This document shows, piece after piece, positions 7,206 through 64,000 of a stretch of 64,000 nt of DNA. The notes below the pieces were generated by a model, which worked only from the letters and a program-made list of their open reading frames with translations, was not told where the DNA came from and made no database searches. The DNA is taken from positions 347,820,001 to 347,884,000 of the forward strand of contig OZ024743.1 of assembly GCA_964016885.1 (NCBI GenBank), in the 5' to 3' direction. The stretch comes from Eledone cirrhosa. Taxonomy: Eukaryota. Position 1 is the first letter of the stretch, and every line of letters starts with the position of its first letter. A program made the position numbers and the translations under genes.

Positions 7206-7650
7206 AGGGTGAAGATACAGATGTTTAGTAATGAAATGAAATAATAAAATAATTATAATTGTAATGGAGTTAAATGTTTTAGCAATTTTCAATAAAACAG
7301 GGTGGTGACTGTCAATTTGATTTAATCTATAACTGTCGCGCTCTTACATATACAAACACATACATATATATGTATATATATATAAACGGAAAAAATTAAA
7401 CGAAATTACATTTCCCACTCTTAGTACGGCTGTTACTTAAATATAAGTATGTATACGTACATACATATATGTATACAGACGTACAGTAGTATGTATATAT
7501 ATATACATACATGCACACATATATATATATGTACCATTGGATTCACCAAACATTTATTATAATGCTCGGTGTGTTTGTAAAGAAACATCCCGTATTAAGC
7601 CACAGTGTCTAGCAACCATCGTTGCTTGTTTCTTCAACACTGACAAAGGA

Positions 7651-7693
7651 ACGCTGTACTAGTTTCAAGCTTAATAGCTATCGTCAGCAACGT
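7651..7693 (-). ncRNA. Minimal type I hammerhead ribozyme
   Basis: acgttg-CTGACGA-t-agct atta agct-t-GAAA-ctag-TA-cagcgt. Confidence 0.85.
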
Positions 7694-7945
7694 ATACCTT
7701 CCTGCCAGATTGTTGAACGTCCGAAAGTATATACTTTCCTTATGCATATTAACGGCTGAGTAGCCCAATTTGCCTATCGAGTGGGTTAATCGGCCGGGTT
7801 CACCGAAAATGATAAACGGAAAAAATGAAACGAAATTTCACTTCCCAGTCTTAGTACAGCTGTTACTGGACTGAATGAACATTTTTATCCTGGTATTTGA
7901 ATAGCCGAGCTTCTCAAGGGAATTCCATATCTGGCAGGAAGGTAT

Positions 7946-8229: not shown

Positions 8230-8357
<128 letters not shown>

Positions 8358-8449
8358 ACGGAGGAAATGTGGTAAGGAACCAGGTGGACCATAACGCACC
8401 AGGGTACTCAATACTTAGAGTAGTCAAGTGGGTAATAGGAACGAGTAGG

Positions 8450-8545
8450 ACCCCGACGGCTGAGCTCAAGCCGTTTCGACGGCTAATTCTGGACTAAATG
8501 AACATTTTTATCCTGGTATTTGAATAGCCGAGCTTCTCAAGGGGT
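8450..8545 (-). ncRNA. Type I hammerhead with U3-A8 core variant
   Basis: acccc-TTGAGAA-gct cggcta...tagccg tc-GAAA-cggct tgagctc agccg-TC-ggggt. Confidence 0.8.
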
Positions 8546-9627
8546 AATTCCATATATGGTAAAAGTGGTTGTCACAAGGATTGGTCAAAAGTTTGTTGTT
8601 GAGACATAATAATTCTATGATGGCAATTTGTGGAGGGAAGGGGTAGCTGAACCTGCCAGTAGGAGAAAGAGGGAGAGGGGGTGGAGGAGACCCATCCATA
8701 CGTTGATAGTGCCGACTACAGCTGGGTATGAGGTAAAAGAAGATACTAGGGAGGGGGAGGAAGTCGAAACAATAAGTAGAACAATATAGGGTAAACATAT
8801 AGAAAAATACCGTGTTAAAAAGCAATTAAATATAAAAAAAAACAAAACAATTTCTGGTTACTACGACCTAAGTCTCTCACTGGTACTGCTAGGCTAAAGA
8901 AAGGTATACTAGATGGGACGGAATTATAATGAGACCCTTTTAAGAGGTATAACTAATAAACCGAGTTTTACCTTACGGTGACGGGTCAACAAGTGAGGGT
9001 CCAAAATACTAAAGAAACTACCACGAAATAATACATAAAGGATTCTACCCTAGGCACAAGGCCAGCAACCACCCAATGCAAAAAAGTAAACTAATACGAA
9101 ATAATAATTCAGAGTCCCGAGAAATAATACTAATACTATCTCTAAGGGTGCCGCCACGATACAAAAGTTCTAGTGCAAGCTACATAAAAGCTCGTACGAA
9201 GTATATGTAAAATTTGATACGGAAAATTAATTCAGACCCCCCCCCCCCCCCCCAAAAAAAAATACTGATATACGAGAAATTAAAGCAAAGATACCACTAA
9301 GAAATATAGAAAGCACGGAAAAGGGGCAGCGGTCGGATAAGAGGGCAAGTATCCGGGGTCTAACACATCTGCTATAAAAAGCGGAGTCGGCCAAATCTAT
9401 CATAGAATAAGGGAAGGGGTGGGGGTACTGAGGCTACAAAGGACCGAGGGGCTGCCTCGGGTGGGTGAGAAAAAGACGACGACAAAGAAAGAGAACTGGG
9501 GTGGAAGGACCAGGGAGGGATGGGGTAAGAAGGAAATATAGAGGAAGCGATAAAAAGATATAAAAGAAGATCTTACGTCTACCTTTGCAAGCAGGGGCTA
9601 CCCATTACAAAATCGGTAAGTGGGGTG

Positions 9628-10160
9628 TTATAACCCTAGTCTAACCCCTCCCCCCCAAGCGTCATTATGGGGTTTGAGGGCGAGGTAAGTCCTACGCAAT
9701 CTGTGTTTACATGCAGTAACCAGTTCATCTTTCTTGTTTAGGAGTTGGTCCGTCGAAAACAGCATTTGTAAAGTTTCCTCCGAGCATAAATTGCACGGAC
9801 GTCGTCCTCCCGTGTAAGAGATGGCTCTGGACAGTAAGCTCCAAGTGAGATCATAGGTAATGTTGTTATCCTTGAGGTCCCATATGTGGCCCGAAAGTGT
9901 AGTGGCGTGACACCGGGCCGGGTTTCGGAAGTTATGTCTGTGTTGGTATAGCCGGGTCTTGAAGTCACATGCGGTTAATCCTATATAAGCTTTGTTGGAG
10001 GTATCCGTCCTCACGTTGCACTGATAGATCACATTACGATCTCTGCATCTGTTGTCGAGGGGGAAAATGGATCCATCAGGACAGTTGCACCTCCTGGTCT
10101 GCTCTTCACTGCTATTTAGGTTATTTCTTCCATAGGGGTTGAGTTTTGTGTTGTTAGCTC
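9628..10160 (-). pseudogene. PLE GIY-YIG domain (inverted duplicate)
   Basis: CNCPDGSIFPLDNRC..VIY..YIGLTACDFKTRLYQH..CNLCSEE..LLNKKDELVTACKH. Confidence 0.9.
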
Positions 10161-11305
10161 CCGACTCACCCTTCGACGTCAGCATTGGCGCGACGGATTC
10201 GGCTGAGGTCACAGATCTTATAGGATTATTCCTAATAGCCAAACTCACCCATATGTTTCCTGCATTCGGCGGTGGATTGTACCGTGATGATGGGCTCCTT
10301 ACCCTTAAAGGGTACAACCCCAGTAGTACAGATCGGGTCCGTAAACAATTAATCAGCTTCTTCCGCGACTGGGGATTTAAAATAACCCTACAAACGTCCC
10401 TGACCCGAGTAAACTTCCTGGACGTTACCCTTGACGTCGATAATGATCTGTACTACCCATACAGGAAACCTAACGACAACCTGCACTACATCCACCGCCG
10501 GTCAAACCATCCTAGGAACATCACCAATAACCTGGTTAAAAACATCTCCCTCCGCATATCACGTTTGTTAGCTAATGAGCAGATATTCGAGGAACATGCG
10601 CCTTATTACAACCAGGCCCTCAAGCGGAGTGGTTTCCGGGAGGAAATATCCTACTGTCCAGCTTCCATTAGCGCAACCAGCAGACGACACCGCCGCTCAT
10701 GCAATGTAACATGGTTCAATCCTCCCTACAACGCCGAGGTGACAATTCTTATCGGGAAAATCTTCTTTAGGCTCATTGAAAAACACTTCCCACTACAACA
10801 CCGCTACCACAACATAATTAACAAAAACACCATCAAACTCTCTTACAGCACCACACCAAACTTTGCACAAAACATCGTCTCCTCTAACAAAAATAAACTC
10901 AACCCCTATGGAAGAAATAACCTAAATAACAGTGGAGAGCCGACCAGGAGGTGCAACTGTCCTGATGGATCCATTTGCCCCCTCGACAACAGAGGCAGAG
11001 ATTGTAATGTGATCTACCAGTGCAACGTGAGGACGGACACCTCCAAGAAAGCTTATATAGGATTAACCGCATGTGACTTCAAGACCCGGCTATACCAACA
11101 CAGACATAACTTCCGAAACTCGGCCCGGCGTCACGCCACTACACTTTCGGGCCACATATGGGACCTCAAGGATAACAACATTACCTATGATTTGTCGTCG
11201 TCTTCTTCTCGCCCACCCGAGGCAGCCCATCGGTCATTTGTAGCCTCAGTACCCCCACCCCTTCCCTTATTCTATGATAGATTTGGCCGACTCCGCTTTT
11301 TATAG
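10139..11305 (+). pseudogene. PLE RT (C-terminal half) + GIY-YIG endonuclease fragment
   Basis: FDVSIGATDSAEVTDLIG, LYRDDGL, VNFLDVTL, SNHP, WFNPPY, CNC..CPL, YIGLTACDFKTRLYQH. An internal deletion after ~11190 removes the C-terminus. Confidence 0.92.
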
Positions 11306-12080
11306 CAGATGTCTTAGACCCCGGATACTTGCCTTCTTATCCGACCGCTGCCCCTTTTCCGTGCTTTCTATATTTCTTAGTGGTATCTTTGCTGTAATTT
11401 CTCGTATATCAGTATTTATTTTTTTTAGGGGGGGGGGGGGGATTCTTAATTAATTTTCCGTATCAAATTTTACATATACTTCGTACGAGCTGTTATGTAT
11501 CTTGCACTAGAACTTTTGTATCGTGGAGATAGTATTAGTATTATTTTTCGGGACTCTGAATTATTATTTCGTATTAGTTTACTTTTTTGCACTGGGTGGT
11601 TGCTGGCCTTGTGCCTGGGGTAGAAACCTTTATTTATTATTTCGTGGTAGTTTCTTTAGTATTTTGGACCCTCACTTGTTGACCCGTCACCGTAAGGTAA
11701 AACTCGGATTATTACTTATACCTCTTAAAATGGTCTCATTATAATTCCATCCCACCTAGTATACCTTTCTTTAGCCTAGCAGTACCAGTGAGAGACTTAG
11801 GTCGTAGTAACCAGATATTGTTTTTTTTTTTTTTTACATATAATTTCTTTTTAACACTCTCGGTATTTTTCTATATTTTTACCCTATATTGTTTTACTTC
11901 CTCCCCCTCCCTAGTATCTTCTTTGACTGCATGCCCATGAATGGGTCTCCTCCACCCCCTCTTCCTCTTTCTCCTACTGGCAGGTTCAGCTACCACAAAT
12001 TGCCATCATAGAATTTTTATGTCTCAACAACAAACTTTTGACCAATCCTTGTGACAACCACTTTTACCATATATGGAATT

Positions 12081-12176
12081 ACCCCCTGAGAAGCTCGGCT
12101 ATTCAAATACCAGGATAAAAATGTTCATTTAGTGCAGAATTATCCGTCGAAACGGCTTGAGCTCAGCCGTCGGGGT
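12081..12176 (+). ncRNA. Type I hammerhead, copy with C3/A8 mismatch
   Basis: acccc-CTGAGAA-...-GAAA-cggcttgagctcagccg-TC-ggggt; otherwise near-identical to 8450-8545. Confidence 0.65.
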
Positions 12177-12198
12177 CCTACTCGTTCCTATATATATA

Positions 12199-12282
<84 letters not shown>

Positions 12283-12286
12283 TAAA

Positions 12287-12535
12287 TAGGAAACAGTTTA
12301 ACCCCGACGGCAGAGCTCAAGCCGTTTCGACGGATATTTCTGGACTAAATTAGAATTTTTTACCGTGGTTAATAAATAACCGCTAAAAATTCTAATGTAG
12401 TCCAGAAATAGCCGTCGAAACGGCTTCAGCTCTTCCATCGGAGTTAAACTGTTTCCTATTACTCACTCTACTACCTTAAGTATTGAGTACTCTGGTGCGT
12501 TATGGTCCATCTCGTTCCTTACCACACCTCCTTCG

Positions 12536-12540
<5 letters not shown>
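12287..12540. mobile_element. Inverted pair of PLE 3'-terminal fragments (HHR 3' half)
   Basis: ~12287-12360 (-) and ~12385-12540 (+) both match the GAAAcggct..gagctc..TCggggt region. Embedded in (TA)n. Confidence 0.75.
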
Positions 12541-12574
<34 letters not shown>

Positions 12575-13747: not shown

Positions 13748-16700
13748 CTACAGGCTGATATAGAGAGAAGGCCCATTCACTCGGGCCATTCTCGCCACTT
13801 TCACCCACCTTTCATAAAACTTGCTGGGGTACAGCACCTCTCTCTCCATCCTGATTCTTCTTCCAAAGTGGTATTTGAAAAAAAGAATCAGTTGTTGGCC
13901 GGAGAGAAAGGTGTCTGACCTCAGCCCTTTCAACCTTGTCCACCATACAACCTCTTTCGCCATAGCTATCACACAAAGGAAAACCGCCTCTCCTTCGTTT
14001 TTGAAGGAGGGTGGCGGTTTGATCATGACAATGGACTCGGTGGTCAACTGGATTGGTCCCACCCGCGACAATAGTCGTTCTACATATCCCCACAGGTCAG
14101 TGACGCCCGGGCAGTGTATGAATGCGTGCGCGACGGTTTCTTCGTCTCGCACGCACCTCGGACAGATCTTTTTTGTAGGGTCCCTGCCCGGGCGCCCATG
14201 TCTGTAGAGCTTGTCTCGAACTGGTAGAGCTCCTCGGTAGCACTGCCAGGCCAGGGACTTTTGGAAGTTGTCCATCGGTCCCGGGCGGAAGGTCCTACCG
14301 AACAGACTGGCCAGTTCATCTTCCTCCACGCCCAGAGTTTCACCGAGCGCGTCGTCGCACTTGCTGCGGACCAACCCTCTATAGAATGACGAAGTGGAGT
14401 CTCCACTGATCGCCGGGTCCGCCTGCCAGAGGGCTGTGAGCGCCTGAGCACATTCGATGTGCCAGTCGCCCATTTTCCTCGGTCTCTGCTTGACCCAGGA
14501 CTGCAGCTCGGTCAGTGAGACGAGTCGTGGGAAGGCTCGCCTCACGAACGGGGCCCACACCGGTTGTCCGGTGAGGAATACGTAGAGATGCCGCAGCCTG
14601 AGCGCGTGTTTGCGCATCGTCAACCACGGCATCCCCAGCCCTCCGTTAGAAGGGTGTTGGCAGCAGATGGATCTTCTTACCAAAGGAGCCCGCCTCTTCC
14701 AAAGGAATCGGAAGAGGGCGCGCTCCATTTTGGCGAGCGTTTTGGCTGGACAAGGCACGACGGTCAAGCGGTAGTAGATGGCGGACGCTATAAAAGTGTT
14801 CGCCACCTCCGCTCGACCTTTCAAGGATAGTTTGCACTCGGCCCACTTCTGGGTGAGTGCAAACACCTTGGCCGTCACTTCGTTCCAGTTCTTCTCCACC
14901 TGGAGGTCCGGACCATACCAGGCCCCGAGCAGCTTTACCGGTCCTTCCGTCCAGCGTCCGACGACGCCATCGGAAGGCATCGGTCTGCCTCTCCACGATC
15001 CGAGTTGCAAACCGATGGACTTGTCCCGGTTCAGCTTCGCTCCTGTGAGACTTTCGTATTCCTTTAGTAAGGTGCCGACTTTCTCGATTTGCGAGGCGCT
15101 CGACACCATTACTGTCACGTCGTCGGCGTGGGCCGACGCCGCTTTCCGCAGTCCCGGTTCCAGAGGGATGCCCTGCAATAGCTCCAGCTTCCGCAGTAGT
15201 GGCTCGAGAGTCAGTACGTACAGAAGGGAGGAGAGAGGGCATCCCTGTCGAATGGATCGCGTAATATGGAACGGCTCCGAGAGGTAACCGTTCACCTTGA
15301 CCCTTGAGCAGATGTTGCTGTTGTGCATTGCAGCAATCCAGCCCCTGAACACGGGTCCGAAGCCTGCCGCCTCGAGCACCGCATCCAGGTAACGATGGTC
15401 AACCCTATCGAAAGCCTTAGACTGATCCAAGTTGATCAGGGCCCCACCGAAGCCGGGTTTACACCCTACCCTCTTTATGATGTATCGCATGAGGTGGAGG
15501 TTGTCGTGTATGGACCTGGTCGGGATCGCGCATGTCTGCGCTTCTCCCACCAGGTTCTCGACGACAAGCGCCAGCCTCTTTGCCAACACCTTGGCCAAAA
15601 TCTGTAACTCTGTGCTTAGCAGAGTTATGGGCCGGAAGTTGCCTATGTCATCCCCCTTATTCTCGTCCTTCCTGATTAGTGTGACCACGCCCCCGGTTAC
15701 AGAATTGGGAATTCTCCCGTTCTGTTGCCAGTTGCAGTAGACCGCTTCCAGGAGACCGGAGAATAAGTCCGGCATTGCTACGTAAAATTCGTAGGGTAGA
15801 CCGTCGAGACCTGGAGATTTGCGTTTGCCGCAATGGCTCAGCGCGTCCCCTATCTCAGTGGCTGAAATCGGCTTTTCGCAGAACTTCGCCTCGCTGTCCG
15901 AGAGTCGCGGTAGGCCGTCGAGGTATGGACCGAAATCCATAGCCTCTCCCGGCGCGCCGCTCCCCCCGAACAGCCGAGCAAAGTGCCGCTGAAAAGCCGC
16001 ACACATCTGCTTCGGCTCACGTATCACGCGTCCGTTTTGGTCCTTCAAAGACCGAATCGTGGACTTGTTGCCACTTTTTGCCTCCGTCACTCGGGCCCAG
16101 CTAACAGCTTTGGCTCCCTCGTTTCCCAGAGCACGTATTTTCCTTCTGACAACGCAGCCCTCGTGCTTTGCGTCGAAGAACTGGTCCAAGGCCGTTCTCG
16201 TTGCTAGCACGCTGGCTACGTTGCCACTTCTAATAGCCTCTTCTACTTTATCTACCAGTTCCTTCTCGGTTCTATTTCTATCTAACGCTAATTCTTTACT
16301 AAAAACTATCGAGTCTAATCTAACTGCCCTCCTGAGAGAGTACCACCATCTGTTGTTGACAATGGCCCCTGTCAAGTGCTGTTTAACTAAAGTGCTAATC
16401 CGTCTACTGTAGGCTTTGCTTGTCGGTAACGACAAGTTCAGCTTCCAGTAGCCGGGTCCTTGTCTATGGGTTCTATCAAGGTTGGCCATGCAGGTCACTA
16501 GTTTGTGATCTGAATAGGCAACCATGAACATTTGTGGACAGCTTAACATGTCCCTATCCTTATTTCTAACTAGAACCCTATCTAGGTACGATCTAGATGT
16601 TCCGCTACGATTACTCCACGTCCACAGTGGCGCAGTCGGAAAATCTAGTCGATATCTATCGGCCAGGTCAAATCGGTCGATTAACTGTTTGAGGCTGTTA

Positions 16701-17185
16701 CACCCCCCTTTATCGGGACATGCTCCCACATAGTCCCAACGTGCATCTAGGATTCCATTCCAGTCCCCCACTAAAAGCAAGGAGCGGGACGTTCCCAGAA
16801 AAGTCTCTAGACGTTTGAAGAAGTCTGGCCGCGGTGTCCCGGATGGGGCATATGCGGCCACCAGCCTGAACGCTCCACTTTCACTACCGTCAACGTCTAG
16901 GACCACCAGTCGACCCTCCGGGTCCAGATGTACCGTCTGTGTTACGAGGCCCAGGTGTTTCCGCAGCAAAACGGAAACTCCGCCCCCACCCCCCGGTTGA
17001 CAGAGAGATGCGTAGATCTCAAAGTCATCGAAGATGGGGGCCAGCTGTCGCTCGCCGTGGATCCTGGACTCGCAAATGGCTACCACATCCAAACTGTGCG
17101 ACCTGAGGTCGTTTAAGAGTTTGCCCTGTTTCCAGGGCATCCCCAGGCCGCGTACGTTCACACATCCAACTCTTATATTGGCCAT
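13748..17185 (-). CDS. LINE ORF2: APE endonuclease + reverse transcriptase + C-terminal Cys/His finger
   Basis: NVRGL, GDWN, SYLDRVL, SDH (APE); KSPGLDG, FRPITLL, LDQSKAFDRVDH, IRQGCPLS, HADD (RT); CPRC..ETVAHAFIHC. 1145 aa, uninterrupted. Confidence 0.96.
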   Translation of the reverse strand: MANIRVGCVNVRGLGMPWKQGKLLNDLRSHSLDVVAICESRIHGERQLAPIFDDFEIYASLCQPGGGGGVSVLLRKHLGLVTQTVHLDPEGRLVVLDVDGSESGAFRLVAAYAPSGTPRPDFFKRLETFLGTSRSLLLVGDWNGILDARWDYVGACPDKGGCNSLKQLIDRFDLADRYRLDFPTAPLWTWSNRSGTSRSYLDRVLVRNKDRDMLSCPQMFMVAYSDHKLVTCMANLDRTHRQGPGYWKLNLSLPTSKAYSRRISTLVKQHLTGAIVNNRWWYSLRRAVRLDSIVFSKELALDRNRTEKELVDKVEEAIRSGNVASVLATRTALDQFFDAKHEGCVVRRKIRALGNEGAKAVSWARVTEAKSGNKSTIRSLKDQNGRVIREPKQMCAAFQRHFARLFGGSGAPGEAMDFGPYLDGLPRLSDSEAKFCEKPISATEIGDALSHCGKRKSPGLDGLPYEFYVAMPDLFSGLLEAVYCNWQQNGRIPNSVTGGVVTLIRKDENKGDDIGNFRPITLLSTELQILAKVLAKRLALVVENLVGEAQTCAIPTRSIHDNLHLMRYIIKRVGCKPGFGGALINLDQSKAFDRVDHRYLDAVLEAAGFGPVFRGWIAAMHNSNICSRVKVNGYLSEPFHITRSIRQGCPLSSLLYVLTLEPLLRKLELLQGIPLEPGLRKAASAHADDVTVMVSSASQIEKVGTLLKEYESLTGAKLNRDKSIGLQLGSWRGRPMPSDGVVGRWTEGPVKLLGAWYGPDLQVEKNWNEVTAKVFALTQKWAECKLSLKGRAEVANTFIASAIYYRLTVVPCPAKTLAKMERALFRFLWKRRAPLVRRSICCQHPSNGGLGMPWLTMRKHALRLRHLYVFLTGQPVWAPFVRRAFPRLVSLTELQSWVKQRPRKMGDWHIECAQALTALWQADPAISGDSTSSFYRGLVRSKCDDALGETLGVEEDELASLFGRTFRPGPMDNFQKSLAWQCYRGALPVRDKLYRHGRPGRDPTKKICPRCVRDEETVAHAFIHCPGVTDLWGYVERLLSRVGPIQLTTESIVMIKPPPSFKNEGEAVFLCVIAMAKEVVWWTRLKGLRSDTFLSGQQLILFFKYHFGRRIRMEREVLYPSKFYERWVKVARMARVNGPSLYISL

Positions 17186-17218
17186 GTTGGTGCTGAAAAG
17201 TTAAAAGAGGAAAAGAGA

Positions 17219-19030
17219 TCACTCACCCTTCGCCTCCTGGGGACCAGGCCGCACGATTTCCATGGGGGTGTTGGAGGGGTTGTCTGGATGGGTGGTGGTT
17301 TCCGGCGGGGTGGGGACGCAGATGTTTGGTGGGGTGGGGTCTGGTGGGATGGGGGTGTCTGGGGTGGGGAGGCATTTGAGAAGGACGCGGTTGAGTGGTT
17401 TCACGCAGGAATTCCCCACATCCTTCTCAAATGTTTCTTTTAGGGACCTATAAGTTTGTATAGGGACCCTAATCAGTTTTAGGTTCATTTTTTTGCTATT
17501 TTTTATAGAGTGGGCGAAAGTTTTCCCTTCGGTGAAAACCGAAGGGTCGTTCGTAATGGTCTCCATTAGTGTTTTGTTTTCAGTGTTTATGTAAGTGTAA
17601 GTGTAATTTTCTTGTGTTGTGTTTGTTTTTGTCTGTAGTTCTTGTGTGTGCTTTCGTTTTGTTGTAGGTATTTTGTTTTCAGGAGGTGGGGGTTTTGTTT
17701 GTGATATTTTTGTTGTTTGTGTTGGTGGTTGTATGTTTGTGGTAGTGTTTGCTGGTTTTTTGCTTTTGTGATGTCTTTTCTTTCTTTTCGAGCGATGGGG
17801 TTCTCCCTCGTCTTCACTGGGTGATGGCGAGATAGCCTCATCTGTTGTATCGTCTGTGTGATTGGGGAGGGGTATGTCTTGGGGAGCTGTTGTGTCTGTA
17901 TGTGATTTTGCAGTGGTTTTAGGTGGAGTGAGGTTGGGTGGGACTGTGTTTGTTGTGGTTATTTTTGTGTGTTGGTGTTGTTGTTGTAGTGGTGGTGTTG
18001 GTGGTTGTGTTGTTTTGATGGGTGTTGGCAGAAGAGCCTTTTTTTGGTTCATTAGTTTAGGACAGGAAGCCCTCAGGTGACCCCTGCTAAAGCAATGGTA
18101 ACATGAAGGCCGCCTACCCTCAACCGAAAGGTTTATGTAGGTAAGTCCGTCCAGGAGTACACGCTGTGGGATCATAGCTATTCGCTCTGGGCTCATTTGC
18201 ACCAGAACTTCAATGCTAGTCCCATTGAATACATCTCTGGGGGACTTGCCTACTGACAGTATTCTGTCTTCATCAAAATTGATGAAGCCGCACAGTATCC
18301 ACCATATGTTCACCTTTGGTGTGACACTTGTGATTCTGATCTTTTGTGTCCTTTTTCCCATGTATGTAGGGAAAAAGGTGTACAGGTTGGATACAATTGG
18401 CGACACAGAGTAATTTTGGGCCGTCAATTGATCCTTCATCAGTACCGAAATACTCCCAAAAAGTTTGCTTCTTTGAATGAATGCAATATCATTCATTGAA
18501 TCTTTGAAAACCAGTTCAATATCTTTCTGTGACAATTGGACTGGTTTTCGGGTAGAATTGGAAACTGTCCTAAAAACTATCGTTTTGAGAGCAGTTTCCT
18601 TGCGAATTTCTACCGGAGAATTGATGCTGAAAGCACCATTTTTTTCGAAGGTGACATATCTCTTAGCGTCCTTTAAAATGTGTTCAGCATTTGTTATGTC
18701 GAGATATATCAATTGTTCTTTCTTTTGAACTTTCTCCGCAAAGGAGATTTTTGGTTTCTTTGTGGAATCCGTATTGGTGGTGTTGTCATTATTGTTGTTA
18801 TTCTTGTTGTTATTCTTGTTGTCACCGATGTTGGTATCATCCGTATTTTCCTTGGTGTTGTTGTTGTCTTTGATGCTGGTGTTATTGGCGTTGTCTTTAT
18901 TTTTTTCTTTGTTGTTGTTATCATTGTTGCTTTTATCATCATTATTGGATTTGCTGTTATTTTTGTTGTCATTGAGCTGTTTGGTGTCATTTGTGTTGTT
19001 TGGATGTGAATTCGTTTTTTTTATTTTCAT
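17219..19030 (-). CDS. LINE ORF1 nucleic-acid-binding protein
   Basis: Immediately upstream of ORF2. Single CCHC knuckle CYHCFSRGHLRASC, Asn-rich N-terminus, Pro/Thr-rich C-terminus. 603 aa. Confidence 0.88.
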   Translation of the reverse strand: MKIKKTNSHPNNTNDTKQLNDNKNNSKSNNDDKSNNDNNNKEKNKDNANNTSIKDNNNTKENTDDTNIGDNKNNNKNNNNNDNTTNTDSTKKPKISFAEKVQKKEQLIYLDITNAEHILKDAKRYVTFEKNGAFSINSPVEIRKETALKTIVFRTVSNSTRKPVQLSQKDIELVFKDSMNDIAFIQRSKLFGSISVLMKDQLTAQNYSVSPIVSNLYTFFPTYMGKRTQKIRITSVTPKVNIWWILCGFINFDEDRILSVGKSPRDVFNGTSIEVLVQMSPERIAMIPQRVLLDGLTYINLSVEGRRPSCYHCFSRGHLRASCPKLMNQKKALLPTPIKTTQPPTPPLQQQHQHTKITTTNTVPPNLTPPKTTAKSHTDTTAPQDIPLPNHTDDTTDEAISPSPSEDEGEPHRSKRKKRHHKSKKPANTTTNIQPPTQTTKISQTKPPPPENKIPTTKRKHTQELQTKTNTTQENYTYTYINTENKTLMETITNDPSVFTEGKTFAHSIKNSKKMNLKLIRVPIQTYRSLKETFEKDVGNSCVKPLNRVLLKCLPTPDTPIPPDPTPPNICVPTPPETTTHPDNPSNTPMEIVRPGPQEAKGE

Positions 19031-19574
19031 TTTGTCTTTCCATCTCTATAGTATCTAGTGAAGAAGACGTTGTTGACTGCGAGCTTTGTAGTCTTACCGC
19101 CTCTCCACCACCATTATCGTTGGACGCAGCGTTCATAACGTAATCAAAATTTTACAATATTTTTTCCAAGATTCGATGGAGAAAAATTTTTTAAATGGAT
19201 ATTCCGCCCCTGAAGGGGCGAAAATGAGTTGACCCACCACCTGAAGGTCCAGACGGGTGGTCAAGTTACACAATGATATAAAATTGAACTAAAAACTCAC
19301 GTTTTTTCCTTACATAAATTAACGGAAACTTCTCCGCGAAGTGACACACGACTGATAGAGAGATAGATAGATAGATAGATAGATAGATATACAATATATA
19401 TATAATCGTGCTCACCCGGGTCAATCTGCAGTAACTCCGCGTTACACTCCCTGTATATATATATATAAGTATTAAGTTGTTAAACAATATTCGATGATTA
19501 TGTCAAAGAAAGGGTTTTACAGTAGATTGGAACCATCAACGAAAAAAAAATAATTTTCAGGAGTTATTAATATT

Positions 19575-20555: not shown

Positions 20556-20610
<55 letters not shown>

Positions 20611-20679
20611 AACGAGTGGGACCCCGACGGCTGAGCTCAAGCCGTTTCGACGGCTAATTCATATACATGTATGTGAATG

Positions 20680-23600
20680 CCGATTCCAACCATCCCCACT
20701 CAATACTAAATGCAATTATTAAAGGCGTATCTAATAGGATTAGTCGTTTATCTTGTAACGAAGACATTTTTAACTCAAATGTTGAATATTATAACGATGC
20801 ACTAGCAAAATCCGGGTATAGGAATAACCTATATTACATACCTACTAGCCTATTAGCTCCCAATCCACCCATGCTGGACCTAATAGTATAATTACGCACA
20901 ATATGTCATTGAATAATAATAGTAATAAAAATAGGACTAGGGATAAAAGCCCTACGGTGATTGGTACGGCCTGGCACCGACAGAATGGCCCTGTTTTGCA
21001 TCCTCCCCATATTCCTTCTGGTGACATTAATAGCGGTATGATGAGATCTAGAATCTCTACGCATCGTGGTGTTATTAATGGGAGTAGTGAGCAAAATAAT
21101 GCGGGAGTTTCACAGCAGGTATATCCTGGCAATAATATTGACGGCGGTAAGGGTAATGGTAGTTCTAACATTAACCTGGATCTGTGGGGAAAAATAGAAA
21201 AAATAGAAGAAGACTGAACACATACTTTAACCCACCCTACAACTCTGAAGTCTTAACTAACATACCCAAAACATTCTTCTTAATCCTAGAAAAGAATTTC
21301 CCACCTGGCAGTAGATACCATAGTATAATTAAATAAAAATACGATTATATTATCTTACTCCATTACCCAAAATTTGGCCTACCACCTAGCACGCACTAAT
21401 AATAGGAAAATTAGGGTAGGGTTCTACACAATCAAATCTGTAAATGACTACCAACAACCTTACACATTGGGAAATGAGGTTCCTGAGTTTGGTAGCAACA
21501 CCTCGGTAGAACATATACCATATCGGGAAGGTTTTACCAACCGGCCCTCCCAGGACACGAACAGCAACACACAGCAACATTGTATTTGTAGATGGAGTGA
21601 AAATTGCCCTTTGAAGGGCAATTGCCTCACGAGAAGCATAGTTTATGCATGTGATGTTGTAACGGCAACCTCCACCAAAACATATGTGGGCTCTACTTCT
21701 ACATCATTTAAGACTAGATACAACTCCCACAAATATACATTGAGCTACGATAGGCTCAAGAATGCCACCTCCCTAGCTAAATATGTTGACTTTTTAAAAA
21801 ATGATAGTATCGATTATACCCTTAATTGGAGATTGGTGACTAAATCTACGCCCTACTGCCTCCCTAGCAAAACTTGTAACCTGTGCCTTCTAGAGTCTCC
21901 CGCCATAATATATACTAGATGTAACCTGCTCAATAGGAAATCAGAGATATTTACTTCTTGTATACACATGAATCTTAATTCCTTTTACCACTTTTAGCTA
22001 ATTAATTAGATCTGCCGAGGAATCACTCCTCCCTATTCAGTACCCCTGTAGCACACTCTTAACTTTACGCCTCATTATTCCTATTTCCTTAACCAACTAT
22101 CTTCCCCTCCTGTGGACCTCCCTCGGTATGTAAGTTTGTATGACAATGGGGCCTTCTGTTCCATTGCATTTACATGTTGCCTGATAATCCGTTGGTCTCT
22201 TCTGTGCCCAGACCACGGTACGAATGTCTAAATTCCCAGGGGTGACCACCATGAGACCTTGACTTCGTGGCTTCCCTATAGCCACCGTGGTTGGGTAATA
22301 AGACAACCCATCAGCCCCAACTCGAGGGTTACTGGTGTGTGTGAGTGTACGCCTTGCCCTAGTTTGAGCTACAGATTTATATTTATTTTGTTGAATTTTT
22401 GGTCCCGGATCGTTAGCATAACGTCCTAAGTATTGTCCCGCCTTGATGGCGAATGATACTGTATCGTATATGGCAGCCCATTGCTATTACGAGGAAGGTA
22501 ATTCAACTACTCGCCCTATCTAGCTTAGTCCCACAGACCGATATGGGCATATATGGTTCAATTGTTTGACCCTCCCTACTACGAGAGATGCGTGCACTGC
22601 CCGCTCCCCATACTTGGTAATGGATGCAGTTCGTACCGGGTATGGTGACACCGTGCTTGCACCTCAGAAGTATTAGAGATCCCTTTACCGTAGAACCTAT
22701 ATGTTATACTATCTGTTTGAACCCTACCCGTTTGAATACTCCCCATAATAGAATAAGTAAAGATATCCTTGGGCTCATTGACATATCATAAGGTAACCGC
22801 GATTCAATAGTCTTTAGTATGACAAGCTTGACTATTCTGGAGGTCCAATAATAATTAATAATTATATAGTTTTTATTTTTACGAATCTTGTTGAATTAGT
22901 ATTGTTATTCTGTTGGTGATTACAATTTTGGTGGTGGTTAGAATTAAATAGCCTTATAGATGACACGTTAGAGTAGACCCCTTTCTCTACCACTGTAACG
23001 TCATTACTTGGTGACTGAAGGGAGTAACACCCCGTATGTATCTTCTGCGTCATGAATTGATGTGTATATACCCATAGCGGTGACGAACGAAGTAGCGTGT
23101 GTTTATTTTTTATGGAGCCGAATTCCTAAATTTCCGCGGGGTATGTAAGCTGTCTTATATAATTTTTTTATGCCTGTATGACTCCACCTAACAGACATAC
23201 TGGGTACCTGGTGGATTTAATGATTTGAGCACTTTGTGTTATTTTCTGTTTTGTATAGATTGTTAACCACGTGCTGTATGAGTTTGGTCAACGGTGAACC
23301 ACTGCTGCACTTACCCTCGCATTATTTTGACGTGTTCGCGGCTGGATTAGGTGTGACGAATTTGGTTGTACAGAATCTGGAGCTGCAACTTGAACACATT
23401 GTACTTCACGGTCTGGGATTTTAAACATGCGGAGATTTTTTGATGTGTAAATTCAGCCTGTAATACATGTTACTATATGTGATGATATGTTTTGGTGAGC
23501 GTATGAATCCGACTGGATTGCACTTTACGGACGATCTACATATGTTCCAAACTCTGGACCGAATTACTATCTACGGACAATCCACTATCTTTATAACTCA

Positions 23601-24160: not shown

Positions 24161-24483
24161 ATGTATATATTTATATATATATAAATTGAAACAAAATGAA
24201 AACGAAATTTCATTTCTCACTCTTAGTATGGCACTTACTTAAATGTAAGTATGCATGTATACGTACATACATATATGTATACAGACGTACAGTAGCATGC
24301 ACATATATATATATATATACATATATACATACATATGCATACAGGTACACATACATATATGCACGTATCAGTTTAGCGGCGCTAACGTCGCTTTGTTCGT
24401 TTGTAAACAAACTGAACAGCCTGAATTTATGCCATACGGTGTTAAGGCAACCACGTCACCTTTTTGTTCAACACTGACACAGG

Positions 24484-24528
24484 AACGATGTACTAGTTTC
24501 AAGCTTGTTAGCTATCATCAGCACCGTT
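24484..24528 (-). ncRNA. Minimal type I hammerhead (unit 1)
   Basis: aacggtg-CTGATGA-t-agct aaca agct-t-GAAA-ctag-TA-catcgtt. Confidence 0.9.
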
Positions 24529-24951
24529 TACCCATCTGCCAGATAGTTGAACGTTCGAAAGTATATACTTTCCTTATGAAAATTAACGGCTGAGCAGCCT
24601 AATTTGCATATTGAGTGAGTTAAATCGGTCAGGCATACCGAAAACGATAAATTGAAACAAAATGAAAACGAAATTTCATTTCTCACTCTTAGTATGGCAC
24701 TTACTTAAATGTAAGTATGCATGTATACGTACATACATATATGTATACAGACGTACAGTAGCATGCACATATATATATATATATATACATATATACATAC
24801 ATATGCATACAGGTACACATACATATATGCACGTATCAGTTTAGCGGCGCTAACGTCGCTTTGTTCGTTTGTAAACAAACTGAACAGCCTGAATTTATGC
24901 CATACGGTGTTAAGGCAACCACGTCACCTTTTTGTTCAACACTGACACAGG

Positions 24952-24996
24952 AACGATGTACTAGTTTCAAGCTTGTTAGCTATCATCAGCACCGTT
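24952..24996 (-). ncRNA. Minimal type I hammerhead (unit 2)
   Basis: Identical to unit 1. Confidence 0.9.
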
Positions 24997-25417
24997 TACC
25001 CATCTGCCAGATAGTTGAACGTTCGAAAGTATATACTTTCCTTATGAAAATTAACGGCTGAGCAGCCTAATTTGCATATTGAGTGAGTTAAATCGGTCAG
25101 GCATACCGAAAACGATAAATTGAAACAAAATGAAAACGAAATTTCATTTCTCACTCTTAGTATGGCACTTACTTAAATGTAAGTATGCATGTATACGTAC
25201 ATACATATATGTATACAGACGTACAGTAGCATGCACATATATATATATATATACATATATACATACATATGCATACAGGTACACATACATATATGCACGT
25301 ATCAGTTTAGCGGCGCTAACGTCGCTTTGTTCGTTTGTAAACAAACTGAACAGCCTGAATTTATGCCATACGGTGTTAAGGCAACCACGTCACCTTTTTG
25401 TTCAACACTGACACAGG

Positions 25418-25462
25418 AACGATGTACTAGTTTCAAGCTTGTTAGCTATCATCAGCACCGTT
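25418..25462 (-). ncRNA. Minimal type I hammerhead (unit 3)
   Basis: Identical to unit 1. Confidence 0.9.
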
Positions 25463-25675
25463 TACCCATCTGCCAGATAGTTGAACGTTCGAAAGTATAT
25501 ACTTTCCTTATGAAAATTAACGGCTGAGCAGCCTAATTTGCATATTGAGTGAGTTAAATCGGTCAGGCATACCGAAAACGATAAATTGAAACATATGCAA
25601 ATTAGGCTGCTCAGCCGTTAATTTTCATAAGGAAAGTATATACTTTCGAACGTTCAACTATCTGGCAGATGGGTA

Positions 25676-25720
25676 AACGGTGCTGATGATAGCTAACAAG
25701 CTTGAAACTAGTACATCGTT
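25676..25720 (+). ncRNA. Minimal type I hammerhead (inverted unit)
   Basis: aacggtgCTGATGAtagctaacaagcttGAAActagTAcatcgtt read directly on the + strand. Confidence 0.9.
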
Positions 25721-25956
25721 CCTGTGTCAGTGTTGAACAAAAAGGTGACGTGGTTGCCTTAACACCGTATGGCATAAATTCAGGCTGTTCAGTTTGTTTA
25801 CAAACGAACAAAGCGACGTTAGCGCCGCTAAACTGATACGTGCATATATGTATGTGTACCTGTATGCATATGTATGTATATATGTATATATATATATATA
25901 TGTGCATGCTACTGTACGTCTGTATACATATATGTATGTACGTATACATGCATACT

Positions 25957-25999
<43 letters not shown>

Positions 26000-26511: not shown

Positions 26512-26640
26512 GTAACGAAGGAAATGGGACCATAACGCACCGAATTACTCAATACCTAGGGTAGTATAGTGGGTAATAGGAACAAGTATGACCCCGACGG
26601 CAGAGCTCAAGCCGTTTCGATGGCTAATTTTGGACTCAAT
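26512..26640 (-). mobile_element. Short PLE 3'-terminal fragment
   Basis: Matches 8357-8495 (HHR 3' half and tail); TA-rich flanks. Confidence 0.75.
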
Positions 26641-26667
26641 GTTTGTATGTATATATATATGTATATA

Positions 26668-27433
26668 TATAATCAAGGTTTAGCAAATAAGAAAAAGTTT
26701 TAAAATAAATTTTAAAAAGTTTACTGTACCTGCTGTAATTACCCTTACCGCGCGGTTCAAGTCTCAAAATAAATGGATAATCTATGCGGAAATATTGAGA
26801 AGAAGACTTTCGTCAGAGGGTTTTTCTCACTCGGAGAACATAAAATTCCCGAGTTCAAATCACGAACTGGCGCCATACAGAACTCTTCCCGAGATGAGAG
26901 TGTATGATGAAGAAATAATTTTGTTTAGTGCCGTGTGTAAAGGTAGAAGGCAGGGGCGGAAACGTCAATGTACTGCCATTAGAAATAGCAGCTGTTAAAA
27001 TCACCAAAATGTTATCTCGACCAGGGGGGATTAATAATAATAAAGTATGTTTCCCTACATGCAAAATGCATATAGGTATACATGTATTATCCAACTGTAT
27101 GCCAATGTGGTTCTATGGCAGATTAATAAATTAACGAGCCAGAACATATATAATCATGGTTTAGCAAATAAGAAATGGTTTTAAATTAAATTTTAAAAAG
27201 TTCACTGTACCTGCTGTAATTACCCTTACCGCGCGGTTTCAAGTCTCAAAATAAATGGATAATCCAAGCGGAAATTCATTGAGAAGAAGACTTTCGTCAG
27301 AGGGTTTTCCTCACTCGGAGAATATAAAATTCCCGAGTTCAAATCACCAACTGACGCCATACAGAACTATTCACGAGATGAGAGTGTATGATGCAGAAAC
27401 AATTGTGTCTAGTGCCGTGTGTAAAGATAGAAG
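26668..27433 (-). repeat. 481-bp HHR-containing unit, ~1.6 tandem copies
   Basis: aatca(a/t)ggtttagcaaataag at 26671 and 27152; (TA)n flanks. Confidence 0.9.
27222..27305 (-). ncRNA. Type I hammerhead ribozyme
   Basis: accct-CTGACGA-aagtct...agactt-GAAA-ccgcgcgg-TA-agggt. The copy at 26741-26821 lacks one A of GAAA. Confidence 0.9.
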
Positions 27434-46773: not shown

Positions 46774-46997
46774 AGAATATTTTCGAAACAGCGCGTGGGT
46801 TTGAAATTATTAGAAATGTAAGCTATCGCCGTATTTTGACAAAAGAAATTAAAGAAATTATTTAGTCAAAATACGGCGATATCTTACATTTCTAATAATG
46901 TCAAGCCCACTTGCTGTATCGAAAATATTCTTACTTGACATTACAGTCGCTAAGTTTATAGCTTCTAATTTGAATGGAAAAGGATGGGTGATGTGTT

Positions 46998-47139
46998 GGT
47001 GTAAATGGTAGCACAGTGGTCCGGATAACCAAAGATGTGGGTTCGACTCCCATGTACATCAATATTCATCTTTTTTCCATTTCTCCGAGTCTAAATAATT
47101 TCTTTAGTCAAAATACGGCGAAAGCGTACATTTCTAATA

Positions 47140-57205: not shown

Positions 57206-57301
57206 ACACCGACGGCTGAGCTCTGACCGCTTCGACAGCTAGATCCGAACTAAAGCGCCAGTATTCGAACGGTAGGAATCTAGCTGAACTTATCAAGGGG
57301 T
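57206..57301 (-). ncRNA. Diverged U3-A8 hammerhead (A15.1>G, probably inactive)
   Basis: acccc-TTGATAA-gtt cagctaga...tctagctg tc-GAAG-cggtcagagctcagccg-TC-ggtgt. Confidence 0.7.
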
Positions 57302-57622: not shown

Positions 57623-58819
57623 TTATATTTAATACACTCTTGGTGGCGAGGGACTATACAGGCCAAAAAGCAAGAGGAAATGGGTCAGTAGACTTACTGA
57701 CCTGAAAGTGAGCCAGTCAGTCACGCACATACACTATTAAGAGATAATTTTTCCTTATCAATTATTCCTAATCTGTAGAAATTTTATTGTGCTTCACTTC
57801 ATTAGATGCAAGAGGAAAAAACCAACGAAAGAAAATATAATTTCGGTGTATTTGTGTCAAAGAGAATGGTGTAGTATATTTATGTGTTTGTTAATTTGCG
57901 TTTTCTTTACAGTTTGCTAGTTATCAATTGCTCTATAACCCGGGAAAAGCGCCTCATTCAATAATTTACTTATTTTCAAACACCAATAAATCTACCATTA
58001 ATCTTAATGATTTCTGTTCTTGTACTGTTGTAAGTTAGCTAAGGTTCTCTAGTAAAGTAAATTCGTATTTTATATAAGAAATGTCTCAAGAGTAATTTTA
58101 ACATGTATATCAAAGCTATCGCAAAACATTAGCAAAAGGAAATAATAGAATTGAAGGTTAGTTAATTGTTTTCTTTAACAATTCTACCGCTATAGTTTTT
58201 GATGGTGCTTACGCATTGGCCTAATATAAGTTTATATGCCAGTACACATTTTCTGTATATACCAAGCCTGCCATTGTGGCAGTCCGGTAATGGCTGCGAG
58301 TAAGCTTGTGCATCGTGCTTAAACTATGAGTAATAGGTCTTGTAATGTGTGATAGCTATCTGGTCGACTGGTTCTTTCGGCCAATATGTATATATTTTAC
58401 AAATATTAAATTATTCTATTTCAATCTAAAGATGTTTAGGAAGTATTTACAATAATGAATATATTCTATTTCTACCTAAGTAAGCTTGGGGTTTCCTCTA
58501 TCTTAGTGTGGAAATGGGAAAGGCATTACACCAAGTTCTACCCACCTGGGTCGTGAGGGGATTTGAAGGTAAGATATGTCCTATATATTCTGTGTTTACA
58601 CGAGGTAATGTGTTCATCCTTTTGCTTACTAATTGGTCCTTAGCAATCATCAGTTAGATCGTTTCCTCCGAGCCTACATTGCACGGGCGGAGTCCTCTCA
58701 AGTAAGATTTTGCCTTATAAAGTAGGCTCCATGTTAGATGATACATAATATTTTTGTCTTGGGCGTCCCAAATATGGCCTGAAAGTGCTGTAGCGTGTCG
58801 CGTATAATATAGATTTCAG

Positions 58820-61621: not shown

Positions 61622-63835
61622 CTACATTTTAAATTTAAATTTATATTTAAACGTTGAGTTTAATCTATGTTTGCAACAACTGAATAAATTTGTCCGTAGG
61701 TTAAGGGAATTTTTAGATTTTAGTATAAAGAATATCTCCTCTGCGCAGAGGTCACATGTCTCAGAGGATGAATTAAAAGGAATCCCTCTTGAGACTATAT
61801 TCCAAGCCGTCGAATATCTAACGTTATCTAGCTTAAGTTGCCAGAGTACACCTGATAGTGCCGTTGAAGATTTTTTATTTGGATCTGTGAAAGAATTCTT
61901 GTGGTTATTATAGCGAAGTTTAAATTCCGTCGATGTGGAACCGACGTAGTTAAAAGAATTAGAGTCAGTATTAACATTACAATTGTATACTATATTTTTA
62001 ACTAAGCAGTTGTTATTTAACGGACATTTAGATCTATCTCTACAGTTGCATTTGTTAACTTGTATATTATTTATGCTATTATCAGTAGTTTTTAAGTTCC
62101 TATTATTTATTCTATTAATATTTTGTGCTAAATTTTTGGTGGATGAATAGGTTAATTTAATTGTATGCCTATTGAAGATTGAGTGGTACCTATGTGTTCT
62201 AGGGAAGCGATTATCAAGAGCTTTGAAAAATAATTTAGCGATGTGGGTTTTAATGTTTAGTGAGAAAGGGGGGGCAAACCAAATTATGTTCCTAGTTCTA
62301 TTTCTTTTTTGTCCTTTGGAATTATTGTAATGCTTTCTATTATAGTTGTTAATGTTGTTGCCATAATTAAAAAAGTTGTTACTTTGTTTAGTTTGTTTAT
62401 CATTATCTATGTACACAATCTTATCAGCATACCCTGCCCTAGCTAGTGCATCATTATAGTATTGGGCCTTTTCGTCAAAAATCTTTCTATTCGACGAGAT
62501 CCTAGAGACACGCTTTTGGACTGAGTTTACTATAGTGTTTTTGACAGATCTGGGGTGGTTAGAGTTAAAGTTGACATAGTTTAAGTTTTCATTCAACTTG
62601 TGAAAAGGATAGTGGAGACATGTGTTGAGATTTAATGTTATATCTAGGAAATTGACTATTCTATGGTTGTTCTCAATTTCTATTTTAAGGTTAAAGTAAT
62701 TAAAAAATTTTGTAATTTGTTTACATTTTCTATTTAGTTCAGGGTTATTATTATTAATGAGTAAAAGCATGTCATCCCTATATAAACCTCCGGTAGTACC
62801 AGGTATTTTCCTATGTAGCGAATTGATTAAAAATAAGCCCACAAGGTCAGTTACTTGAGCTGAGTCGGAAGATCCCATAGTTATGTCAAAATTGCTATCT
62901 CTATCTGCTCTGGTCCATAATTTGTCATCAAATTCTATCAAAGTTTTCCTAGCCGATAATATAATATGCATTTCTTTGCTAGTTAGGTCCGTATGTTTGA
63001 ATGCGTAATTTAGTGCCTTATTTAGTAGACTAGGGGTAATAGAAGAATAATAGTTAGCTATATCAAGTTGAATAAACCTATTATTATTGTCATATTTAAT
63101 TTGCCTAAACCACTCAACAACCTCTCCGGTTCCCTTCCACAAGCTCAGGTTAGATACATAATCCAAGTTCTTAATTTGCAGTATCACCCTGTCAAGAATG
63201 TTTTTGCTTAATTTGCCCAGGTCCGATTTTGAAGGTGCGATTAATCTAACTGGCAGGTCAATCTCAAAATTCCTCTTGTGGTCCTTCATATTGATCTTCG
63301 GTTTCCTGGGCACAAAAGGTTGTGTTCTGTTCTCAATTTCCAACTCATGCATTATACAAGATGCTTCAACATTCATTTTCACAAGTTCGGTCTTATCTGC
63401 TACCTTGTATTTTTTCCTCAGCTCTTTCAGTATGAGGCCATTATACATGTCTTTCTGCACTCCATAGAGGTTGTTGGTCTTGTCAGATTTCACCAAGATC
63501 TTCTCAGTTTTCTCTAAGCTCTCAATGTTATCCTTAATGCCTTTCAGATATTCCTGGCCTTTAAAGTTTCTCTTGAATTTGACCCCTTGTATGATAGAAA
63601 TTATATCGTTTTCAAAGTCAGATAAAAGTTTGTTAGGGGGTGGATTTCTTTTAGATTTGAAAACTTTGTTTAAGTCCGAGATATTTTCGTCTGCATTAAA
63701 TTTATCAAAGTGGAATGCACGCCACCTGATTCTCCTTATAAAAGAGTCAGATTTATCTATTAGTTGTTTTACAAAGTCTTTGTTTCTAGGTAGAGGTATG
63801 TCTTTTAGAGAGGAAGTAATCTTAAAGAATTCCAT
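61622..63835 (-). CDS. PLE reverse transcriptase-GIY-YIG endonuclease (Naiad-like), 737 aa
   Basis: SLKDIP..RIRWRAF, KSDKT, QLDIANYYSSI, FDITMGS, LYRDD, FLDI, SNHP, WFAPPF, CNC..CPL..C, YVGSTSTEFKLRYNNH, CDLCAEE, CKH. Confidence 0.95.
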   Translation of the reverse strand: MEFFKITSSLKDIPLPRNKDFVKQLIDKSDSFIRRIRWRAFHFDKFNADENISDLNKVFKSKRNPPPNKLLSDFENDIISIIQGVKFKRNFKGQEYLKGIKDNIESLEKTEKILVKSDKTNNLYGVQKDMYNGLILKELRKKYKVADKTELVKMNVEASCIMHELEIENRTQPFVPRKPKINMKDHKRNFEIDLPVRLIAPSKSDLGKLSKNILDRVILQIKNLDYVSNLSLWKGTGEVVEWFRQIKYDNNNRFIQLDIANYYSSITPSLLNKALNYAFKHTDLTSKEMHIILSARKTLIEFDDKLWTRADRDSNFDITMGSSDSAQVTDLVGLFLINSLHRKIPGTTGGLYRDDMLLLINNNNPELNRKCKQITKFFNYFNLKIEIENNHRIVNFLDITLNLNTCLHYPFHKLNENLNYVNFNSNHPRSVKNTIVNSVQKRVSRISSNRKIFDEKAQYYNDALARAGYADKIVYIDNDKQTKQSNNFFNYGNNINNYNRKHYNNSKGQKRNRTRNIIWFAPPFSLNIKTHIAKLFFKALDNRFPRTHRYHSIFNRHTIKLTYSSTKNLAQNINRINNRNLKTTDNSINNIQVNKCNCRDRSKCPLNNNCLVKNIVYNCNVNTDSNSFNYVGSTSTEFKLRYNNHKNSFTDPNKKSSTALSGVLWQLKLDNVRYSTAWNIVSRGIPFNSSSETCDLCAEEIFFILKSKNSLNLRTNLFSCCKHRLNSTFKYKFKFKM

Positions 63836-64000
63836 TTTTCAGTTATAATATAAAGCGCTCAACAGTATTGGAGCAAGATACATGTAAAGTTATATTTAAA
63901 ATTGTTGGGTTACAACTAGTAAATATTTATAACTGATATAAAAGCACTCGACAAATACTTGGAGTATATTTACAATATTAAATAAATGGAAAACTATATT

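Follow-up and report, generated by a model that had tools for sequence, protein, structure and literature searches.

The minus strand at positions 8450-8545 of the window, the 64,000-nucleotide stretch of the Eledone cirrhosa genome analysed here, carries what is probably a hammerhead homologue with an inherited U3-A8 core pair, lying in a pseudo-LTR of a Hydra-clade Penelope-like element (PLE); it is likely a slow cutter, one that helps transposition but is not required for it. In hammerheads the 3-8 pair positions nucleotide 8 for catalysis. Tentatively, this pair may have passed through a full cycle in the family, from C-G to U.G, then to U-A, then to a dead C.A state that left more than 1000 insertions, and back to the U-A state ancestral to all young intact copies.

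Anatomy and predicted fold of the hammerhead motif

Read as its reverse complement, 8450-8545 has the layout of a type I hammerhead: three helices surround the core, and the ends lie in helix I. Helix I (stem I) consists of 5 bp between ACCCC (8545-8541) and GGGGU (8454-8450). The core UUGAGAA (8534-8540) has U3 at 8540, G as N7 and A8 at 8535. Helix II (8478-8533) begins with G10.1 (8533) opposite C11.1 (8478) and holds a small internal loop and the pairing of CGGCUA (8530-8525) with UAGCCG (8485-8480); it is closed by a long loop II region of about 38 nt. GAAA (8477-8474) is followed by a helix III of 6 bp (8456-8474) and by a GUC triplet (8454-8457) in which C17 is 8455. Cleavage is predicted between 8455 and 8454, which we take to be the cut position from established hammerhead numbering. 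The catalytic core letters U4 G5 A6, A9, G12 A13 A14, A15.1-U16.1 and H17 are all present, the 3-8 pair is Watson-Crick, and the absence of G8 is a published variant. Sequence, fold and genome matches place the motif in subfamily E2, and 23 of its 41 listed genome matches, the window locus counted in, are identical over 121 nt.

The hammerhead elements named in the preliminary description, which gave no strand, are all found on the minus strand; the palindrome that it quoted as GAGCUC in stem III is present and is longer, an 8-nt UGAGCUCA at 8468-8461. Identification as a hammerhead is further borne out by a strict descriptor, which gave 3 matches in the 64-kb window and 0 in 20 shuffled windows. 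An Rfam scan of 8400-8600 matched no hammerhead family at E values up to 10, and no hammerhead was among the best 150 of 179 matches when the whole window was scanned. The free variation of N7 led us to reject an alternative register, CUGA-GA, in which N7 is deleted.

Folded as a hammerhead, this copy is 1.5 kcal/mol less stable than its predicted minimum (z = -1.06). That minimum is a strand swap between helices II and III, which is possible because the two helices share strands; in the youngest genomic copy the hammerhead is itself the predicted minimum-energy fold. Computed energies for helix III are -7.1 kcal/mol as a hairpin and -30.7 kcal/mol as a homodimer, and cofolding predicts that two hammerhead copies pair through the helix III palindrome. 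With 6 bp in helix III the motif falls outside the minimal class of PLE hammerheads, in which this helix has 0-2 bp.

The nearest full copy in the window is an inverted partner on the plus strand (12081-12176). Its core, CUGAGAA, contains a C3.A8 mismatch and its helix II a further change; both the partner and its mismatch had been overlooked. Two other copies had been cited in favour of a family trait. The core at 7911-7917 is real, but it belongs to a 5' half fragment of an E2 hammerhead (7866-7934, minus strand) without GAAA, helix III or cut site and, as a fragment of the same subfamily as 8450-8545, it is not independent evidence. The copy at 57206-57301 (minus strand) does contain UUGAUAA, but it is a decayed older member of subfamily A in which A15.1 has become G; its ORF remnant lies at 58537-58801. 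A second, unrelated hammerhead at 27222-27305 (minus strand) is canonical (CUGACGA), with a long loop II and a palindromic helix III. Elsewhere in the genome (loci L148-L156) canonical CUGANGA families are abundant whose loop II is long and whose helix III is a palindrome such as ACCAUGGU; their fetched flanks contained no match to the ORF of the Hydra-clade element.

The carrier element and its published relatives

An inverted insertion (8357-12191) lies between (TA)n tracts; each of its arms terminates in 3' UTR, hammerhead and tail, and the motif is the hammerhead of the left arm. The left arm (8546-10157, minus strand) is 5' truncated and consists of 3' UTR and a C-terminal ORF remnant with a CxCx5C linker and GIY-YIG. 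Next to the motif is the long form of the PLE 3' tail (8357-8449, minus strand), which here runs into (TA)n and in full units continues into the ORF leader. The right, inverted arm (10156-12191, plus strand) comprises RT, linker and part of EN, an internal deletion near 11191, the 3' UTR and a short tail, and has 91% amino-acid identity to the ORF of a reference locus (L062). Identity between the two arms is only about 90-98%, with a difference at position 3, and they may therefore derive from two RNA templates.

Complete units measure 3531 bp and follow one another head to tail; each has a hammerhead at both ends and an open frame of 784 aa whose first Met is at 68, and a single base in 3531 separates neighbouring units. 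On the sense strand, one hammerhead precedes the first ATG by about 190 nt and another follows a 3' UTR of 1.1 kb. A single ORF with RT and C-terminal GIY-YIG, partial-tandem pseudo-LTRs, an inverted truncated copy and a tail identify an EN+ PLE, the protein motifs having been read by eye; a Pfam search of the ORFs returned no family. The pseudo-LTR location proposed earlier is upheld by the tandem units with their terminal hammerheads and by the RT and GIY-YIG ORF. Published diagnostics of the Hydra clade are an RWK-like motif, DKT in place of DKG, CxCx5C, CxxC/CxH beside E and N, and a (TA)n target (PMC8557442). The L062 ORF has RWR, SDKTGN, the linker CNCPDRSIC, CNLC..E and N...CKH, and on comparison by eye closely resembles Hydra-1_Obim. 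Judged from these diagnostic motifs, the carrier of 8450-8545 is a Hydra-clade PLE. Overlap of the core with an upstream ATG frame was rejected as the source of constraint, since many copies of subfamilies C and D lack the ATG.

Other repeats accompany this insertion in the window. A further Hydra-type PLE family is represented by an open 738-aa ORF at 61622-63838 (minus strand), 40% identical to the L062 ORF, and there are more Hydra-type remnants at 20670-21997 and 2207-2407. Positions 13748-19045 (minus strand) contain a non-LTR retrotransposon with frames of 1150 aa (endonuclease-RT) and 608 aa (ORF1-like), the domains being named by eye. A tRNA match above the Rfam gathering score (45.4 bits) at 46990-47061 (plus strand) is possibly a SINE head, and identical 300-372-bp repeats, direct and inverted, lie at 24240-25964 and are related to 7466-7777. 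Outside the window, locus L272 (G000:C2:356027500-356036000) has seven tandem 299-bp repeats, each made up of a U3-A8 hammerhead whose loop II a deletion has shortened, the tail and the ORF leader; it has the appearance of a non-LTR retrozyme in the making, of the kind proposed in bioRxiv 10.64898/2026.07.22.740005.

The family resembles the hammerheads of Cercyon PLEs, whose pseudo-LTRs in Schistosoma mansoni yielded about 1300 U3-A8 matches (Cervera and de la Pena 2014, PMC4209133). Both are type I motifs in a PLE pseudo-LTR with U3-A8, a long helix II, a 5-bp helix I, a palindromic helix III region and more than 1000 dispersed copies; the rarity of U3-A8 that the preliminary description implied does not hold within PLEs. 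Cercyon motifs are minimal and have no helix III, whereas here a full 5-6-bp helix III can fold as a monomer, loop II is about 36-38 nt and the carrier is of the Hydra clade. No C3.A8 subfamily is described for Cercyon in the accessible part of PMC4209133. With the Hydra-clade PLE hammerheads of Craig et al. 2021 (PMC8557442) the family shares its clade, the sense strand, a position near the 3' end, the (TA)n target, an inverted 5'-truncated partner and a tail at one end. It departs from them in core and dimensions: all 26 Hydra rows of File S2 read CUGANGA, with a helix III of 3-4 bp, a helix III loop of 1-3 nt and a loop II of 3-10 nt, the hammerhead of Hydra-1_Obim differs from the family described here, and the unit is 3.5 kb long with its 1.1-kb 3' UTR, against less than 3 kb for published Hydra elements. 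The hammerhead of PAc, a Poseidon element of Anolis, also lies in a pseudo-LTR upstream of tail-defined starts of reverse transcription, but has canonical C3-G8, overlaps the start codon and belongs to another PLE clade (Frangieh et al. 2024, PMC11167929).

That U3-A8 is a natural swap, as had been stated, agrees with the natural covariation from C3-G8 to U3-A8 recorded by Perreault et al. 2011 (PMC3088659), where such swaps were active in vitro; in the accessible part these are scattered examples, without a lineage history or an amplified mismatch state. The U3-A8 swap alone is ordinary and has been in print for PLE pseudo-LTRs since 2014. What is new, as far as these sources go, is U3-A8 in a Hydra-clade element, where every published row has the canonical core, together with the length of helix III and of loop II and an amplified C3.A8 phase. 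No report of an amplified C3.A8 subfamily was found in the literature available to us, on which the supplements of PMC4209133, Lunse et al. 2017 and the supplements of the 2026 preprint may bear.

States of the 3-8 pair and their likely order

A relaxed hammerhead pattern matched the genome 4755 times, and a reversed-pattern control 0 times. U3-A8 accounted for 3114 of these matches and the C3.A8 mismatch for 1461, while 69 had G8 with any letter at position 3 and 111 were in other states. Exact genome matches to the 20-mer of 8450-8545 numbered 683 for U3-A8, 1027 for C3.A8, 7 for U3.G8 and 2 for C3-G8, so that around this very motif the mismatch is commoner than the pair. The earlier claim that U3-A8 is a trait of the family and not decay is supported by these counts, and the consensus is not CUGANGA; the state is inherited, but it is not uniform. 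Searches with CUGANGA do miss the family, as had been said, and a loose CUGANGA pattern was too noisy to count (26884 matches against 13231 in its control). All 31 fetched loci with a frame of 784-819 aa carry U3-A8, these loci having been chosen by protein score, with some overlap and a bias to the youngest subfamily. In aligned contigs from four sequencing runs, which are uninformative on ends, T-to-C at position 3 reached about a quarter of X1 depth, and no A-to-G at position 8 was seen among 40 of the 51 listed contig rows.

Across 21 subfamily representatives, U4, G5, A6, A9, G12, A13, A14, U16.1 and C17 are invariant, N7 is G, A, C or U, and loop II also varies. Four of the 10 pairs of helix II have changed on both sides between subfamilies, as have 6 of 22 pairs overall. 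The covariation score was reached by 1 of 500 shuffles, a value that is not a probability since the rows are related, and the count of 6 pairs by 70 of 500.

An older sister family with the same helix III and about 30% pairwise divergence is mostly C3-G8 (9 of 15 classed copies); its nine exact matches comprise 5 C3-G8, 3 U3.G8 on one contig and 1 other. Subfamily A, the 57206 type, at 23% divergence, has 88 U3-A8, 7 U3.G8, 3 C3-G8, 0 C3.A8 and 2 other copies among the first 100 of its 253 matches. The small subfamily B is U3.G8, C is U3-A8, D and E1 are C3.A8, and E2, F, G and H are U3-A8 (samples of C to H were fetched by state, so the proportions in them do not reflect the genome). Relative to the youngest copy, ORF identity climbs from 72-77% in A to 99-100% in H. 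An ORF tree of 36 rows, built without hammerhead letters, rooted on A and omitting 4 of 40 rows as unclassed or sporadic, grouped the C3.A8 subfamily E1 with E2, F, G and H at 100/100 and rejected a single C3.A8 clade (p-AU 2e-10); subfamily C is one row in this tree and the fork between C and D is provisional. Trees of the hammerhead region only were unstable in the placement of the root.

Copies of the D-E1 stage comprise 1019 with C3 and 30 with U3, which argues against a sizeable parallel U3 line, and units with C3.A8 at both ends are present (L283, L052). Taken together, the ORF tree, the divergence of the copies and the D-E1 counts indicate that the likely order is C3-G8 in the sister family, U3.G8, U3-A8 in A and C, C3.A8 in D and E1, and U3-A8 again in E2 and then F, G and H. 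Under the simplest reading C3 would have been gained once and would have reverted to U3 once; a U3 master kept at low copy through the C3.A8 phase is possible. It is likely, on this analysis, that more than 1000 copies spread during the C3.A8 phase with a core predicted to be dead.

Insertion ends, cleavage and transposition

We propose that the U3-A8 hammerhead would cut the tandem transcript of the element after GUC, likely slowly, either singly or after two copies have paired through the helix III palindrome, and that cleavage in the 5' pseudo-LTR would trim unit RNA from read-through transcripts. Reverse transcription would start in the tail and would have to cross the uncut 3' hammerhead, so that weak activity could be tolerated. 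We infer that U3-A8 can cut and that C3.A8 cannot, or barely; cutting by the U3-A8 motif is likely weak and would trim unit RNA out of tandem transcripts. The element can likely spread without cleavage, paired 3-8 states being favoured over time. PLE hammerheads are described as cutting slowly (PMC4209133) and are thought to act as dimers (PMC6765202), and what they do in PLEs has been called unclear, one suggestion being that they may be no more than parasites of the element (PMC8557442). PAc RNA whose hammerhead is dead is still inserted in vitro (PMC11167929). A complete scan of pairwise changes in one type III hammerhead found rescue by the G3-C8 swap alone, the other single and double changes there having low activity (PMC9901934), so U3-A8 may be weak too, and a natural single-copy CUGANAA hammerhead was inactive (PMC8490949).

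Among leader-linked insertions, 7 of 31 ends fall within 6 of 167 positions at the cut (p 1e-4 against uniform, found post hoc). A planned retest returned 10 rows, made up of 2 already seen, 3 internal deletions and 5 new ends, of which 2 lie at the cut, 1 three bases before it and 2 inside helix III. Ends of short insertions are possibly at the cut in 13 of 57 cases for the youngest U3-A8 subfamily and in 9 of 48 for the C3.A8-linked tail (Fisher p 0.64); the classes were set manually on 60 of 330 and 61 of 438 matches, and the tail served as a proxy that accompanied C3 in 10 of 10 full copies. A peak of ends at the cut can also arise from the G run there and from microhomology. Many insertion ends fall in helix II and helix III. 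Most genomic copies are short inverted insertions that start at the 3' strand of helix II, represented in the window at 1806-1873, 12285-12544, 20606-20660 and 26527-26641, and contig depth climbs by a factor of about 20 over loop II. Subfamily E often shows precise loss of helix III between the repeated helix strands, which points to template switching on the fold.

It is unlikely, in our judgement, that the ribozyme has been catalytically irrelevant ever since C3-G8 was left, with the fold kept for another job (protein binding, the start of reverse transcription or template switching), positions 3 and 8 drifting and the return of U3 being a chance C-to-T in a master copy. Such an account fits the amplification of all four states, including U3.G8 in subfamily B and C3.A8, the low activity of swaps other than G-C in the one scan (PMC9901934), the insertion in vitro of PAc RNA with a dead hammerhead (PMC11167929), the failure of insertion ends to separate U3-A8 from C3.A8, and the many ends in helices II and III, which show that the fold acts on reverse transcription. 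It is opposed by the other catalytic letters, which have stayed fixed over about 30% divergence while N7, the sole free core position, takes four letters, by the Watson-Crick states of the oldest and youngest subfamilies, and by the post hoc pile-up of leader-linked ends at the cut.

A second alternative, that cleavage has been essential throughout and that C3.A8 copies were cut in trans by U3-A8 RNA through a palindrome dimer, or that C.A is active with protein, we regard as quite improbable. It has to be weighed because two copies are predicted to join through helix III, and because PLE hammerheads are believed to do their cutting as dimers (PMC6765202) and the PAc hammerhead cuts only with protein (PMC11167929); insertions with one arm in each state occur, 8357-12191 included, as do ends near the cut with a C3.A8-linked tail. 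Against it, the 30 U3 copies at the D-E1 stage are at about the level of post-insertion mutation, so that trans partners would need a source in an older subfamily, and the natural CUGANAA motif was inactive in vitro. That the U3-A8 of 8450-8545 arose by decay of a canonical core after insertion, or that the motif is due to chance, is scarcely credible: the lack of an Rfam match and the modest fold z-score would agree with it, but decay is refuted by the exact 20-mer counts, and the descriptor had no match in the shuffled windows. The reading that we prefer remains a slow U3-A8 hammerhead that assists the element and that the element can do without.

Nearly 5000 motifs of this family escape CUGANGA descriptors. 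The mismatch history, rather than the U3-A8 swap, is the part worth experiment, since natural C-G, U.G, U-A and C.A alleles in nearly one backbone, with copy numbers, relative ages and young intact ORFs, make the need for a hammerhead in PLEs directly testable. If true, the cycle of the core pair would count as in vivo evidence that a PLE can transpose without its hammerhead and that selection nonetheless favours the ribozyme over the long term.
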